Source: an uncultured Methanosarcinales archaeon
GTDB taxonomy: Archaea; Nanobdellota; Nanobdellia; Woesearchaeales; UBA12501
DNA: 24,000 nucleotides
Assembly: GCA_964343705.1 (NCBI GenBank)
Contig: CAYFJX010000002.1
Coordinates: 2,873 to 26,872 of the forward strand
Direction: 5' to 3'
In this document: positions 5,090 through 17,348 of the stretch, piece after piece
Position numbering within the stretch: position 1 is the stretch's first letter
Layout of the letters: each line of letters begins with the position of its first letter
Position numbers and translations under genes: made by a program
The notes under the pieces: model-generated
Told to the model about the DNA's origin: nothing
What the model saw: the letters and a program-made list of their open reading frames with translations, nothing else
Database searches by the model: none

Positions 5090-5947
5090 CTATTTCTTCG
5101 CTCGGCCAGTTGCCTTAGGAGCAGCACCTTTCATTGTCTGTGTAATTCTAGACAGTTCATGCACATTCTCCATGAACCCAGGAAGAATCTTTTGAAATAC
5201 TTGCTCAAGTGCTTTAATCTCAGTGCTTACATTGGTTAAACCCTTGTCATAATCACTAATTTTGCCTAGGACACCTTCATGGAGTTTGTCAACAGTTTTA
5301 TTCAATTCTTCAATTTGTTGTTCCATTTTTGCTGTCTTGGTTTCAATCGCGTCTTTCCATTCAATAATGTGATTCACACTTTCCATGAGTTCTGCCCATT
5401 TCTCTTCAATAATTGCTTCTGCAACTTCGTGAATACGGGCTTCTCCTGGACTAATATCTTCTGACATTGGTGCGCTTGGACCTGGTTCTGGACCGCCTTG
5501 CATGCCTGCTTGCATTCCTTGTGGCATTCCTCCTGCTGCTGGAGGTGGACTACCTGGGCCACCCTGGCCACCTGGCATTGGAGCTCCTCCTGCTGGGCCT
5601 CCTGGCATAGGACTTCCGCCAGGACCACCCGGGCCTGCTTGCACAGGTGCTGGGTGTACACCAACTTTTATGTCTGCCTGATTAAAGGCATTGTTTATCT
5701 GATCAATACTATAACCAAATCGTTGCAAATTTTGTATGATTTGATTATTACTAAGTCCTTGATTACGCATGTTAACCACATGCTGGATTGGTATATCTTG
5801 TGGATTGGGCATTTTTTGACCTCCTTGAGTATCTTGTTGTAATGATTGTAGTGCCTGAATTGAATCTGGCGATGAGGGATCACCTGGATCTGTTTCAGGA
5901 TAGCCTGCTGGTTTTTTGGGTGATAATAACCGTTTTAATAATGCCAT
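5090..5947 (-). CDS. coiled-coil protein with P/G/M/Q-rich low-complexity linker (hypothetical; possible pilus/archaellum accessory protein)
   Basis: 285 aa in three parts: an N-terminal small helical module (GLSNNQIIQNLQRFGYSIDQINNAFNQA), a ~70-aa PGGPGG/MPGG linker, and a C-terminal heptad-like coiled coil. SD GAGGAAC lies upstream. It sits next to the ATPase locus. Confidence 0.7.
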   Translation of the reverse strand: MALLKRLLSPKKPAGYPETDPGDPSSPDSIQALQSLQQDTQGGQKMPNPQDIPIQHVVNMRNQGLSNNQIIQNLQRFGYSIDQINNAFNQADIKVGVHPAPVQAGPGGPGGSPMPGGPAGGAPMPGGQGGPGSPPPAAGGMPQGMQAGMQGGPEPGPSAPMSEDISPGEARIHEVAEAIIEEKWAELMESVNHIIEWKDAIETKTAKMEQQIEELNKTVDKLHEGVLGKISDYDKGLTNVSTEIKALEQVFQKILPGFMENVHELSRITQTMKGAAPKATGRAKK

Positions 5948-11382: not shown

Positions 11383-11385
11383 AGA

Positions 11386-11541
11386 GTTACTGCACCTTGG
11401 AGTTTATTCGCAAAATAACCGATTCGCTCAGTGAACAAGTATGTTCGCTGGCGTCCCAGTGAGCTCTGCTCACTGAGGACATGCAGGTTATTTTGCGCAA
11501 GTTCCCCGAGCGGATGCGAGGGTTTTGCTCTGTGCAGTAAC
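11386..11541 (+). ncRNA. candidate structured RNA element A (unassigned family)
   Basis: A 10-bp closing helix (GTTACTGCAC/GTGCAGTAAC) is followed by a CTT bulge and a GGAG/CTCT helix. An 11-bp helix (GCAAAATAACC/GGTTATTTTGC) encloses two hairpins, followed by the hairpin CCCGAGC-GGAT-GCGAGGG. The G-T pairs are tolerated only if the plus strand is the RNA. The element is GC-rich relative to its flanks. Confidence 0.45.
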
Positions 11542-11545
11542 TAAA

Positions 11546-11556
11546 ACAATATAAAC
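11546..11556 (+). promoter_or_regulatory. TATA box for 11579..12121
   Basis: The AACAATATAAACC region is centred ~28 nt upstream of the ATG at 11579 (leaderless pattern). Confidence 0.35.
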
Positions 11557-12503: not shown

Positions 12504-12509
12504 AAGACA

Positions 12510-12565
12510 TGGTCCGGGTTCTTATTTGATATGTTTGGTGACATGGTTCTAAAATGATTATGTGA
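12510..12565 (+). pseudogene. relic copy of the 3' end of gene 11579..12121 (direct repeat copy 2)
   Basis: Translates as WSGFLFDMFGDMVLK*, against WSWFLFGTFGEMILKMVM* in the intact gene. A 1-nt deletion truncates it. It has no upstream reading frame. Confidence 0.6.
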
Positions 12566-12566
12566 C

Positions 12567-12745
12567 CACTGGACATCTATTTTACCGAAATGCTTCCGGA
12601 ATTGATTTCTAAAACAGTGTTACAGCTCTTCTCGTCATCATTCGAAAATTCTCCGCAGGGATTATTCCGTCCACTAGACACAATTTTCGTCAAAGACGAA
12701 AATGTGCATCTGAGCTCTGCTCAGATTGCACTGGACATACGTCCG
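12567..12745 (+). other. hairpin-dense noncoding segment B1, bounded by a 10-bp direct repeat
   Basis: CACTGGACAT occurs at 12567-12576 and 12729-12738. Hairpins are TTTTCGTC-AAA-GACGAAAA (12684-12702) and GTGCATCTGAGC-TCT-GCTCAGATTGCAC (12704-12731). The second shares the 13-mer TGAGCTCTGCTCA with a hairpin apex in element A (11460-11472). Confidence 0.35.
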
Positions 12746-12752
12746 CGACAAA

Positions 12753-12761
12753 CTTATATAG
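12753..12761 (+). promoter_or_regulatory. candidate TATA box for the downstream structured RNA / LAGLIDADG transcript
   Basis: CTTATATAG is preceded by an A-rich BRE-like GACAAA. The predicted start is near 12781-12785. Caveat: TATAG...CTATA can also pair as a small hairpin. Confidence 0.3.
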
Positions 12762-12780
12762 CTCGAAAACTATACGGAAA

Positions 12781-13003
12781 GTAATGAAAAAAAGAAAGAT
12801 AACCCTTAGGCAAGGGAAAAAGGTTCAGACCCTAAGAATAAAGAACATCTTGAAATATTTAAATCTTTCGCAATGCCTGGGTAACCCTAATCAGGTAAGG
12901 GAGGGAGGTTCAGACCCTCTCAGTCAGCAATGACTTCGGGGTTCAAATCTCTTTAGAGTGCTAAGCTCTTGGGGTGAAACTCCCCGCTCAGGCGCATTCC
13001 CAT
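12781..13003 (+). ncRNA. candidate structured RNA / long structured leader B (unassigned)
   Basis: No credible ORF. Two ~35-40-nt repeat units (12801-12836 and 12883-12923) share the exact 13-mer AGGTTCAGACCCT presented in hairpin loops. GNRA-type hairpins are GG-GTAA-CC (12879-12886) and AGTCA-GCAA-TGACT (12922-12935). A T-arm-like GGGGTTCAAATCTCT lies at 12938-12952. Includes the bulged hairpin 12955-12999. Confidence 0.4.
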
Positions 13004-13042
13004 CACCCTCATGTTTTTACAGGGTGAAAAACATGAGAGGTG
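13004..13042 (+). promoter_or_regulatory. 15-bp hairpin sequestering the SD of the LAGLIDADG gene
   Basis: CACCCTCATGTTTTT (13004-13018) pairs with AAAAACATGAGAGGTG (13027-13042) with one small bulge. The 3' arm contains the GAGGTG of the SD, located 4-7 nt before the ATGs at 13047 and 13050. Confidence 0.45.
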
Positions 13043-13046
13043 ATTG

Positions 13047-13739
13047 ATGATGGAATTTGACATATCTAAGATAAAGTTTAGTTATATGGATAGGAGAAGA
13101 GGGGTAGTTATACCTACCCAAGTTTCTGAAAGTTTAGCTGAATTTGTAGGCATACTTATAGGAGATGGGTATTTACATAGCAATAAGAAAAAGTATACAA
13201 TTGGTGTTGTTGGAAGCCCAAAAACTGATGTTGAATACTTTACTAGAGTACAAAATCTGATTCAAGATACTTTTGGCTTAACAACAAAGATACATGAGAG
13301 GGAAAGAGCTCTACGATTAGTTTTTGGATCAAAAGCCATTTTCACTTTCTTAACAAACACAGTAGGATTAGCGCATGGGCCTAAGAAAGGAGAAGCAGTA
13401 ACAATTCCTAAATCAATCCTACTTAAGGAACTTACTACAAACGCTGTACTCAGAGGAATATTTGATACAGATGGAAGCATTTTCTTCTCTGACAAAAAAG
13501 GTTCTCCGAATTACCCCACAATAGAACTTACCACTACAAGTGGGGTATTAGCAACACAGATCGCTGAAATTCTAGCGAAAAAAGGATACAGGGTTCGCCC
13601 AAGAAAACACAGACCAGGCAATAATTTAGTCATAAACAGAGTGGCACTATATGGGAAGAAAAATATGAAAAGATGGTTTGAAGAGATTGGCTTTACAAAT
13701 CCCATAAAACAACGAAAACTAATCCAAGCAGTGATATAA
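13047..13739 (+). CDS. LAGLIDADG-family homing endonuclease, double-motif monomeric type
   Basis: Two LAGLIDADG motifs are present: LAEFVGILIGDGYL and AVLRGIFDTDGSIF. The ~230-aa size fits a single-chain enzyme. The track start at 13044 is TTG. The ATGs at 13047/13050 follow SD GAGGTGA. Confidence 0.9.
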   Translation: MMEFDISKIKFSYMDRRRGVVIPTQVSESLAEFVGILIGDGYLHSNKKKYTIGVVGSPKTDVEYFTRVQNLIQDTFGLTTKIHERERALRLVFGSKAIFTFLTNTVGLAHGPKKGEAVTIPKSILLKELTTNAVLRGIFDTDGSIFFSDKKGSPNYPTIELTTTSGVLATQIAEILAKKGYRVRPRKHRPGNNLVINRVALYGKKNMKRWFEEIGFTNPIKQRKLIQAVI

Positions 13740-13751
13740 AAAAAGGAAAAG

Positions 13752-13851
13752 TGGGAATGCAGGGATTTGAACCCTGGACATCCAGATCTTCAGTATCGCC
13801 TGCAAGACAGTGCCTTGCATCTGGCGCTCTCCCAGGCTGAGCTACATTCCC
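13752..13851 (-). tRNA. tRNA-Phe (anticodon GAA) with a 26-nt intron at a non-canonical position (~31/32)
   Basis: Minus strand reads GGGAATG-TA-GCTC-AGCCTGGGA-GAGC-G-CCAGA-[TGCAAGGCACTGTCTTGCAGGCGATA]-CTGAAGA-TCTGG-ATGTC-CAGGG-TTCAAAT-CCCTG-CATTCCC-A. The cloverleaf is perfect once 13794-13819 is removed. It has U33, G37 and A73, and no encoded CCA. Confidence 0.85.
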
Positions 13852-14065: not shown

Positions 14066-14509
14066 TTATTGTACTGGTTCTTCTTCAACAATTGGTTCTT
14101 CAGCAACTTCTGGCTTAGGTGGTGCCTCAGGTGCTGCTTCAGCAGGAGCTTCTCCTGTTTCAGCAGGAGCTGGTGCCGCTGGTTCTGCTGGTGCTTCTGC
14201 AGCTGGTGCTCCTTCGCCTGCTTTACCAACCACTTCGAGCTTACCAAACTTACCTGTGCTTAACTGTTTTTCACCTTGCCATTCACTAACCCATCCGTTT
14301 GAGATTTTGATTTTATCTCCAACATTAACTTGGTCAATTTGTTCGTTCCACAGTGAAAGTGTGATCTCGCCTGTTTCGTCTTTGCCTTTTGCATTGCAAA
14401 CACGACCGTCTTTTCCGAATTTGTTAAATGTTCGTATATCGCCCTTGTCAACAATATCAAGAGTCAATTCAACATTTCCTTGTTTTGGTTGTAAGTCAGC
14501 TACTGCCAT
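14066..14509 (-). CDS. ssb: single-OB-fold ssDNA-binding protein with acidic P/A/E-rich C-terminal tail
   Basis: The core is DETGEITLSLWNEQIDQVNVGDKIKISNGWVSEWQGEKQLSTGKFGKLEV. It resembles the crenarchaeal-type SSB layout, with one OB fold plus a flexible tail. SD GGAGGGAT and a TATA (CTTTATATAAAAG) lie upstream. Confidence 0.75.
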   Translation of the reverse strand: MAVADLQPKQGNVELTLDIVDKGDIRTFNKFGKDGRVCNAKGKDETGEITLSLWNEQIDQVNVGDKIKISNGWVSEWQGEKQLSTGKFGKLEVVGKAGEGAPAAEAPAEPAAPAPAETGEAPAEAAPEAPPKPEVAEEPIVEEEPVQ

Positions 14510-15581: not shown

Positions 15582-17126
15582 TTAAAGCTTATTAAATGTT
15601 GTTCTTCCTGAGAGTAAATCATCAAGTACACGAACTAACTCTTCAATTTTCACACGTTTTTGTTGAGCAGTATCACGATCACGAATAGTTGCCTCTCCAT
15701 CGTCTAAACTTTCAAAGTCTATAGTAACACAGTAGGGTGTACCAATCTCATCATTTCGTGCATAGCGCCGTCCAATACTTCCAGACTTGTCATACACACA
15801 TACAAAATGGTCTTTCACCAGGGCAAATACTTCACGTGCTTTATCTCTGAGCTTGTTTACTAGTGGAAGAACTGCAACTTTTACTGGTGCAAGTTTAGGA
15901 TGTAGTTTAAGCACAATGTTTCCTCGTTCTTTGTCATCGTTGTACGCGTCAAACAAGAAAACAAGCAGGGTTCGCTCTACTCCAAACGCTGGTTCTGAAA
16001 CAACGTGTGGCAGGACTTTTTTGTTAGTTTCTTCGTCATATAGTGTGAGGTCTGCTTTTGAATGAAGCATGTGTTGTTTGAGGTCAAAGTCCCCCCGGTT
16101 TGCAACTCCTTGCAGTTCTTTCCATCCAAACGGAAACTTGTATTCTAGATCCCACGTGTCAACTGCGTAATGACTTTTTTCATCTTTAAGATGTTGACGA
16201 ATACGAAAATTAGAAGGTTGTGCACCAAGACTGAGGTACCAATTAAATGATGAAGCAAGCCAGTACGCCTGCCAAGGATTAGTAAGTATTTTTTGATCCA
16301 TTGCTTCCTTAAGGGTCATTTCTTGATGTTCTTTTTTTTGTTCTTGCATGTCTGATGAAATAATCTGGATTTTTGTTCCAAGGACTTCATCAAGAAAAGG
16401 ACAGTCATTTCCTTTGTCTGGATGAATAAAGTATTCTAGTTCCATTTGTTCAAATTCACGACAGCGAAAAATAAAGTCTCGTGCACGTATTTCATTTCTG
16501 AATGACCTTCCCATTTGTGCAATACCAAAGGGCAGCTTTAATCGTGCGTGCTCTGTAACAAGTCTAAAATTAGTGAACATCATTTGTGCTGTTTCTGGTC
16601 TAAGATACGCTGTTGAACTGTCATTTTCTACTGGTCCAACTTGAGTTCTAAACATGAGGTTGAATTGTTTTCCTTCTGCATATCCTCCACCACACTTGCA
16701 GTTAATGTTGTTTTCTACAATCAGTTTGGTTACATCTTCTTTTGAAAGGCCGTCTGCTTGAATTTTCAGTTTGTCTTCAATAAGGTGGTCTCCTCGTACA
16801 CGTGCATTACACTTGCTGCATTCTACCATGACATCTTCAAAGCAGTCAACATGGCCTGATGCCTTCCATACTTTTGGATTGGTAATGATACTTGCGTCAA
16901 TACCTACAACGTCTTCTCGTGATTGTACAAAGTGGCGCCACCAATGTTGTTTCATGTTGTTTTTGAGTTCAGACCCAAGATGGCCAAAGTCAAAGAATCC
17001 TGCAAGTCCCCCATAGAGTTCTGCTGTGGGGTAGATAAAGCCTTTTGCTTTACAGAATGTAGCCATGCCTTCTATGTTAAGACCTATATTTCCTGTGTCC
17101 GCGTCCCCTGTTGTTTTTTCTGCCAT
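15582..17126 (-). CDS. glyS: glycyl-tRNA synthetase, alpha2 (archaeal/eukaryotic) type
   Basis: The 514-aa length fits. Motifs include AELYGGLAGFFDFGHLGSELKNN, RPETAQMMFTNF, and the class II motif-2-like GRSFRNEIRARDFIFRCREFEQMELEYF. A C-terminal anticodon-binding region is present. Confidence 0.95.
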   Translation of the reverse strand: MAEKTTGDADTGNIGLNIEGMATFCKAKGFIYPTAELYGGLAGFFDFGHLGSELKNNMKQHWWRHFVQSREDVVGIDASIITNPKVWKASGHVDCFEDVMVECSKCNARVRGDHLIEDKLKIQADGLSKEDVTKLIVENNINCKCGGGYAEGKQFNLMFRTQVGPVENDSSTAYLRPETAQMMFTNFRLVTEHARLKLPFGIAQMGRSFRNEIRARDFIFRCREFEQMELEYFIHPDKGNDCPFLDEVLGTKIQIISSDMQEQKKEHQEMTLKEAMDQKILTNPWQAYWLASSFNWYLSLGAQPSNFRIRQHLKDEKSHYAVDTWDLEYKFPFGWKELQGVANRGDFDLKQHMLHSKADLTLYDEETNKKVLPHVVSEPAFGVERTLLVFLFDAYNDDKERGNIVLKLHPKLAPVKVAVLPLVNKLRDKAREVFALVKDHFVCVYDKSGSIGRRYARNDEIGTPYCVTIDFESLDDGEATIRDRDTAQQKRVKIEELVRVLDDLLSGRTTFNKL

Positions 17127-17156
17127 AACGCCTCAATACAGAAATACAAGCCATTA

Positions 17157-17168
17157 TTTATATATTTA
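17157..17168. promoter_or_regulatory. near-palindromic TATA element (glyS promoter; could also fire toward element C)
   Basis: TTATTTATATATT lies ~35 nt upstream of the glyS ATG on the minus strand and ~40 nt upstream of element C on the plus strand. Confidence 0.3.
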
Positions 17169-17203
17169 GCGGCAGATAAGGGCATCTCCTACGTCTTTCT
17201 GAG

Positions 17204-17312
17204 GAATAGTGCCGCCTTGGAGTTTATCAGCCGAGACCCTGATTTATGCAAGGGTCTCGGCGTCAGTTACTGCCCGCTGGATGCGGGCAGCCCTAGCTCC
17301 GCTGCACTATTC
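17204..17312 (+). ncRNA. candidate structured RNA element C (same architecture as element A)
   Basis: A 9-bp closing helix (GAATAGTGC/GCACTATTC) is extended by GC/GC. A CTT bulge and a GGAG/CTCC helix follow. Hairpins are CCGAGACCCT-GATTTATGCA-AGGGTCTCGG and CTGCCCGC-TGGAT-GCGGGCAG. The 13-mer CCTTGGAGTTTAT (17215-17227) is identical to 11395-11407. Confidence 0.4.
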
Positions 17313-17348
17313 ATCCTGCACAAAAAAAGACTTAAAATGAAAAGAAAT

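Follow-up and report, generated by a model that had tools for sequence, protein, structure and literature searches.

What is the 109-base, GC-rich nested palindrome that lies between rfcL and glyS in this archaeal genome? Element C (17204-17312) was originally predicted to be the second copy of an RNA architecture shared with an element A, the closing helices of the two differing in sequence and still pairing. We analyzed the window, which is the whole stretch of 24,000 nucleotides, together with 13.5 kb of additional sequence, giving 37.5 kb of the same genome. The source contigs belong to ENA project PRJEB17505, and five samples were compared.

Structure and stability of element C

Re-reading of the sequence confirmed the coordinates and sequences given for element C in the original prediction, and the minimum free energy (MFE) fold of 17204-17312 on the plus strand reproduced the proposed architecture exactly. 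The fold consists, in order, of a 9-bp helix, a C bulge, GC/GC, a 3-nt CUU bulge, the GGAG/CUCC helix, which can be extended by U·G and U-A, and two hairpins. The closing inverted repeat, seen in both sequence and fold and assigned to no strand, is formed by a 5′ arm GAATAGTGC (17204-17212) and a 3′ arm GCACTATTC (17304-17312). With one mismatch it extends to 17201, giving 12 bp (GAgGAATAGTGC/GCACTATTCaTC). The 13-mer CCTTGGAGTTTAT (17215-17227, plus strand) comprises the last closing base pair, the CUU bulge (17216-17218), GGAG (17219-17222), and a UUUAU junction, and is an exact match to 11395-11407 of element A. On the other side of the helix, CTCC-GC (17297-17302, plus strand) pairs with GGAG, with a pair probability of 0.997, and with the GC at 17214-17215. 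Hairpin 1 (17230-17261) has a perfect 11-bp stem (GCCGAGACCCT/AGGGTCTCGGC) with a 10-nt loop, and hairpin 2 (17270-17290) has a perfect 8-bp stem (CTGCCCGC/GCGGGCAG) with the loop TGGAT, neither being assigned to a strand. The two hairpins are unrelated to each other, and the apex sequence GGATGCG of hairpin 2 is also present in A.

The plus strand of C folds with -60.3 kcal/mol (z = -7.13), a value that was reached by 0 of 200 shuffles, and the minus strand with -59.4 kcal/mol (z = -7.8). The fold contains 35 Watson-Crick pairs and one optional G·U pair. With equal stability on the two strands and this pair composition, C gives no information on the strand and resembles a DNA palindrome. The GC content of C is 58% against a background of 40%, an enrichment that resembles that of the tRNA gene in the same AT-rich genome. 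An independent sliding fold scan of the whole window ranked no other non-coding stretch as more structured than C and A. Two further structured stretches, 5480-5680 and 14100-14220, were rejected as elements because they are low-complexity coding repeats rich in Pro, Gly, and Ala with a GC content of 60-67%; such coding sequence has a very low folding energy and would generate false positives in structure-based scans.

The flanking genes, promoter, and terminator

Element C was predicted to lie antisense to both neighbors, and this is the case. It sits in a 222-nt gap between two minus-strand genes, rfcL (17349-18587/18599), which encodes an RFC-type AAA+ clamp loader, and glyS (15582-17126), which encodes a class II synthetase with glycine-tRNA ligases as its named homologs. 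The best of these come from the Woesearchaeota/Nanoarchaeota, and the present AT-rich archaeon is of that type. A TATA element had also been noted ~40 nt upstream of C on the plus strand. An AT-rich box is indeed located there, but it is the glyS promoter: the TATA region AAATATATAAATAAT (17153-17169, minus strand) lies ~34 nt upstream of the glyS ATG, and a box of this kind, about 30 nt from the glyS ATG, is also present in relatives without C. Just past the rfcL stop codon and before C is a run of seven T residues (17322-17328, minus strand). Oligo-T is the termination signal of archaeal RNA polymerase, and from its sequence and location this run is likely the rfcL terminator. Element C occupies the sole dispensable DNA between this run and the glyS TATA box. 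We found no dedicated promoter for C on either strand, and reading of the sequence identified no oligo-T run after C or A on either strand.

Located past rfcL and directly ahead of the glyS promoter, C would be well placed for a cis-regulatory RNA or DNA element of one of these genes, such as a leader, a 3′-UTR element, or an operator. We consider this highly improbable. Because C lies upstream of the TATA box it is outside the glyS transcript, and on the rfcL strand the T7 terminator precedes it. The element is missing from relatives that have this gene pair and promoter, the related element A adjoins unrelated genes, and C gave no match to the glycine riboswitch or the T-box at E ≤ 10.

Comparison with the nearest relatives

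The comparison set consisted of the three nearest relatives, L005, L006, and L007, whose GlyRS proteins are 73-76% identical. The gene order around rfcL/glyS is kept in all three, and C is absent from the rfcL-glyS site in each. The gap of 222 nt in the present genome compares with 39 nt in L006 and 66 nt in L007, while the L005 spacer holds two unrelated genes. These inserts (L005 2553-3794) lie on the opposite strand and are a UPF0175 antitoxin-like gene and a gene for a 291-aa protein without a domain match. This spacer between rfcL and glyS seems to be a hotspot for insertions in the lineage. Element A is likewise absent from the three relatives; at its site L005 has a 46-nt spacer, and in L006 a tRNA gene follows directly after the gene. 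Both elements are accordingly lineage-specific additions to very short spacers.

We then turn to further copies. No third copy was detected in the extra 13.5 kb or in the contigs of the relatives by descriptor scan, fold scan, BLAST, or covariance model. The pattern CCTTGGAGTTTAT...GGATGCGRG gave a single chance match, in a Prosthecobacter coding region, across 185,579 GTDB representative genomes (one per species). A wider two-motif pattern gave nine chance matches in JGI metagenomes, none of which has the architecture, and four scans of IMG/VR viral contigs with the two-motif pattern gave no real match. BLAST of C against phage and plasmid collections produced no match, and a six-frame peptide search of 5.8 billion proteins revealed no mis-called ORFs over other copies. 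Given its absence from the nearest relatives and from every database searched, C looks like a small lineage-specific insertion. The contigs from the five samples are identical across A and C, the lone SNP being located in glyS at 16567, and so offer no population variation with which to probe covariation.

Element A and its relation to element C

Element A (11385-11542, plus strand) is a partly related 158-nt nested palindrome that contains an 11-bp closing helix, the 13-mer CCTTGGAGTTTAT, and a 12-bp hairpin enclosing two more hairpins. It starts 2 nt past the stop codon of a 763-aa ORF and ends 6 nt ahead of the TATA box of the next gene, thereby occupying the same type of spacer as C, from a stop codon to the next promoter. 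As coding sequence stops 2 nt upstream, A has no promoter of its own. The plus strand of A folds better than the minus strand by about 5 kcal/mol, with six G·U pairs compared with one. This weak preference for the plus strand is the only strand preference of the two elements. The orientations of A and C relative to local transcription are opposite.

The 13-mer CCTTGGAGTTTAT is present in exactly two copies in the window, at 11395 in A and at 17215 in C. The claim that both copies hold an equivalent structural position stands insofar as each directly follows the closing helix. In A, however, the matching arrangement is just one of two isoenergetic folds; the shared architecture has an energy of -77.0 kcal/mol versus -77.2 kcal/mol for a different MFE fold in which GGAG is paired otherwise, and the pair probability of GGAG/CUCU in A is ~0.38 compared with the value of 0.997 for GGAG/CUCC in C. 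The apexes described for the last hairpins, GC-UGGAU-GC in C and GC-GGAU-GC in A, and the 3′ strands ending in G-CUCY were correct.

Could the resemblance be coincidental, with two unrelated structured or palindromic sequences sharing a 13-mer by chance? The window holds 25 exact repeated 13-mers, in agreement with the caveat already attached to the prediction that one shared 13-mer is not compelling alone, and the sharing of CCTTGGAGTTTAT therefore matters solely through its location. Coincidence would also fit the equal-energy folds of A and the other words common to A and C (a 9-mer and the 7-mer GGATGCG), which are at chance level. A covariance-model search points the same way. A single-sequence model of C scored 141 bits on C and 18.8 bits on its reverse strand but, with filters off, reported neither A nor 12955-12999, which had been suggested as an additional member, at E ≤ 10. 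Against coincidence, we estimate the chance that two preselected segments of this size share a 13-mer on the same strand at ~5e-4, and the chance that the two copies of a random repeated 13-mer both fall within C and A at ~1e-3 or less; the latter would be lower still if the same structural position is also required. Shuffles of the window gave 0 matches to the two-motif pattern. We regard a chance resemblance as distinctly unlikely. That the 13-mer holds one structural position in both A and C, the most structured non-coding elements of the window, supports a non-random relationship between them.

The original prediction went further and read the closing helices as showing covariation at the RNA level. 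The closing helices do differ, with four of the six outer pairs changed on both sides, and both pair. This comparison involves n = 2 sequences, and two unrelated perfect palindromes would give an equal count, so the number of changed pairs does not establish RNA-level covariation. The corresponding proposal is that A and C represent, as paralogous genes or as processed products, a new small RNA with a three-way junction and a covarying closing helix, in which the C-CUU-GGAG-UUUAU module and the GGAU loop are functional, putatively in a role such as protein binding. The main observation in its favor is the 13-mer at an identical structural position, to which the common apex motif, the differing but paired closing helices, the tRNA-like GC enrichment, the plus-strand preference of A with its six G·U pairs, and a suitably spaced plus-strand TATA box upstream of C can be added. 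We nevertheless judge this proposal to be unlikely. Only two sequences are involved, C is strand-symmetric without an informative G·U pair, and the TATA box belongs to glyS and is kept by relatives without C. In addition, A has no promoter of its own and an oligo-T terminator follows neither element, the elements are not conserved in relatives, the covariance model of C misses A, and the scans of public collections were empty.

Comparison with known families

A search of the whole window with Rfam 15 at the gathering threshold returned a tRNA gene (13752-13851) as the sole match, and no family overlapped C or A at E ≤ 10 or E ≤ 5. The features that define an RNA family, namely strand asymmetry, a dedicated promoter and terminator, and conservation in relatives, were not found for C. 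Reading of the sequence or Rfam also ruled out 5S rRNA, the hammerhead and other ribozymes, the glycine riboswitch or T-box, C/D and H/ACA RNAs, and a K-turn for C, as well as a replication origin, a CRISPR repeat, an attC site, and a micro-ORF after GGAG. A spliced protein-coding intron was ruled out because the stop codon at 11552-11554 blocks read-through after A.

Among mobile elements, we first compared the two palindromes with MITEs. Both have terminal inverted repeats, of 9 bp in C when perfect (12 bp with one mismatch) and of 11 bp in A. The flanks, CTGAG on the left and ATCCT on the right of C, and TAGAG on the left and AAAAC on the right of A, contain no target-site duplication, although both left flanks end in GAG. 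Within the 37.5 kb there are two copies with differing termini in place of a multicopy family with common termini, and no transposase was seen among the Pfam annotations. The terminal inverted repeats of a MITE family are conserved, and A and C show the reverse. The statement that the closing helices are not a conserved transposon terminal repeat is borne out by the differing termini. Four features of REP/BIME elements or GC clusters are seen, namely short GC-rich palindromic modules, an intergenic location, either orientation, and mosaic combinations; as to the fifth, a multicopy state, the 37.5 kb yielded two partly related copies.

The perfect, strand-symmetric palindromes, the GAG at the end of both left flanks, and the insertion hotspot seen at the rfcL-glyS spacer in L005 would also be consistent with a site for recombination or protein binding that acts at the DNA level and folds in single-stranded form, similar to attC sites or to the end hairpins of IS200/IS605-type elements. 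The attC consensus is RYYYAAC...GTTRRRY. These boxes are absent from C, whose termini are GAATAGTGC...GCACTATTC, and no integrase domain is encoded by the neighboring genes. In IS200/IS605 elements the hairpins of the left and right ends are similar, whereas the two hairpins of C are unrelated, and no integrase, TnpA, or TnpB was seen in 37.5 kb. A recombination site of this kind is a far-fetched reading.

The archaeal splicing endonuclease offers a further comparison, as the host itself uses the bulge-helix-bulge system. The tRNA-Phe(GAA) gene (13752-13851, minus strand), which was detected by Rfam and missed by ARAGORN, has a 26-nt intron at the non-canonical position 30/31. Analysis by hand identified a canonical bulge-helix-bulge with a central helix CGCC/GGCG, bulges AGA and AUA, and a 6-bp inner hairpin. 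The orthologous tRNA gene of L006 has no intron, which identifies the intron as a recent gain. Compared by hand with this intron, C has one 3-nt bulge and a 4-bp helix, without the second bulge or the inner helix. On the minus strand, the outer helix, the 4-bp GGAG/CUCC helix, and a 3-nt AAG bulge on the 3′ strand might constitute a relaxed bulge-helix-loop substrate, making C intron-like or a source of circular RNA. The minus-strand bulge is on the correct side of the 4-bp helix, as in the organism's own tRNA-Phe intron, the lineage gained that intron recently, and a LAGLIDADG gene is close by. We consider the proposal very unlikely since the second bulge and inner helix are missing, the 4-bp helix of A contains an A·C mismatch when read on the minus strand, A and C are opposite relative to host transcription, and neither interrupts a gene. 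The endonuclease recognizes shape and not sequence, so the conserved 13-mer would be unexplained.

The LAGLIDADG homing-endonuclease ORF (13044-13739, plus strand) is free-standing, and it and the tRNA-Phe gene are convergent. Upstream of the ORF lie ~540 nt of non-coding DNA (12504-13043) that is structured (z = -3.5) and in which Rfam gave no family match. This stretch contains T-arm-like motifs, GGTTCAGACCC (twice) and GGGGTTCAAATCTC, an 85%-identical direct repeat (12808-12833/12893-12918), and a perfect 11-bp hairpin just before the LAGLIDADG start codon (13008-13037). The block from A through the LAGLIDADG gene is wholly missing in L006. Beyond the right end of the window (L010 1-6326) are seven consecutive same-strand genes for proteins of 182-603 aa without a Pfam match, which may represent an integrated or lineage-specific gene block.

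Hairpin modules and contig breaks

A second 13-mer, TGAGCTCTGCTCA, forms the apex of the inner hairpin of A at 11457-11475 and of a hairpin at 12708-12726, located in the non-coding stretch upstream of the LAGLIDADG gene. The two hairpins have the exact apex TGAGC-TCT-GCTCA in common and have different outer stems. On sequence grounds, the occurrence of TGAGCTCTGCTCA at two sites with different stems hints at modular mosaicism.

Contig ends provided a second view of the core of C. Logan k = 31 contigs from two samples (L002 and L004) both start at 17243, in the loop of hairpin 1, from which it follows that the terminal 31-mer starts at 17213, the junction between closing helix and core. MEGAHIT k = 127 contigs are continuous through 17243, and the Logan contig L053 is continuous through A. 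One possible cause of the break is another context for the 30-mer 17214-17243 in the metagenome, with a further copy or a variant of the core; an artefact of the hairpin is the other. At a separate location, ~3.4 kb to the left of where the window begins, two samples gave MEGAHIT contigs (L060 13355-13452 and L061 3700-3788) that end within 3 bases of each other, just past a long inverted repeat, GTAGTAGTTCTCGTCGA...TCGACGAGGTGACTACT. These ends suggest that a repeat of >127 nt begins there.

The C-CUU-GGAG-UUUAU module might belong to a new DPANN three-way-junction RNA family with a covarying P1, or be a mobile core that inserts into hairpins; we regard this pair of options as unlikely. With a mobile core, each copy would gain a different closing helix from a pre-existing hairpin. 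On either option, the k = 31 break at the helix/core junction in two samples would be due to additional core copies at other sites of the genome.

Discussion

We tentatively favor the interpretation of C as a small non-autonomous palindromic insertion, MITE- or REP-like, in the dispensable spacer between the rfcL terminator and the glyS promoter, while giving it somewhat less than an even chance. The absence from relatives, the GC content of 58% against 40%, the strand symmetry, the opposite orientations of A and C, the mosaicism, and the lack of a promoter, terminator, or Rfam match bring an insertion close to an even prospect without reaching it. A contig break at the helix/core junction would fit the presence of the core in a second context. 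Counted against an insertion are the recovery of two partly related copies with differing termini, without a target-site duplication or a transposase in 37.5 kb, the lack of any real match in the scans of GTDB, JGI, IMG/VR, phages, and plasmids, and the plus-strand preference of A with its six G·U pairs. The perfect retention of CCTTGGAGTTTAT amid diverged surroundings suggests a functional site that the insertion model leaves unexplained.

As an insertion, C would be a lineage-specific palindrome of ~109-115 bp assembled from hairpin modules, which may have arrived either by insertion or by local duplication of such modules. A read-through transcript of either strand would be expected to form the same three-way junction. 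As C is a near-perfect palindrome whose strands fold alike, its effect is likely neutral, or at most that of an orientation-independent 3′-end barrier or stabilizer for the upstream mRNA. If the insertion reading is true, C adds one more small palindromic selfish DNA, in this case in a streamlined DPANN genome, and spacers between a terminator and the next promoter are sites that tolerate insertion. To our knowledge, small palindromic selfish elements have hardly been described in DPANN archaea. If one of the less likely readings is true, the elements would represent a novel class of RNA in archaea, or a novel mode of insertion that targets hairpins.

The two elements can be compared with several known systems. 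Like the archaeal bulge-helix-bulge, C has an outer helix formed from both ends, a 3-nt bulge, and a 4-bp helix; unlike it, C has no second bulge or inner helix, interrupts no gene, and has a 13-mer conserved in sequence. Archaeal MITEs, such as the Sulfolobus SM elements and the IS-derived elements of haloarchaea, derive from identifiable insertion sequences and are multicopy with common terminal repeats. Elements A and C, if insertions, are similarly small, non-coding, and intergenic, with terminal inverted repeats, but no parent element or common terminal repeat was seen for them. In yeast mitochondria, GC clusters are short GC-rich hairpins in the spacers of a compact AT-rich genome, near homing-endonuclease genes; they are organellar, 30-80 bp in length, and present in many copies that fall into defined sequence classes. 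Fungal mitochondrial DNA also contains double-hairpin elements (PMC4478555). Elements A and C share with the GC clusters the intergenic, GC-rich hairpins that are conspicuous in an AT-rich compact genome and the proximity of a homing-endonuclease gene, but are longer, non-organellar, and represented by two copies in 37.5 kb.

The bacterial intergenic palindromic repeats and small MITEs include REP/BIME, ERIC, Correia/NEMIS, and the Rickettsia palindromic elements. These families have tens to hundreds of copies and conserved termini, with target-site duplications in the case of MITEs, and, on co-transcription, they fold and can influence the 3′ ends of mRNAs. Elements A and C differ in being two partly related copies with different termini and neither a duplication nor a recognized partner enzyme, in a DPANN host. 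They resemble the bacterial repeats in their length of 100-160 bp, their stable folds, their location in spacers between a gene end and a promoter, their occurrence in either orientation, and their construction as mosaics of hairpin modules.
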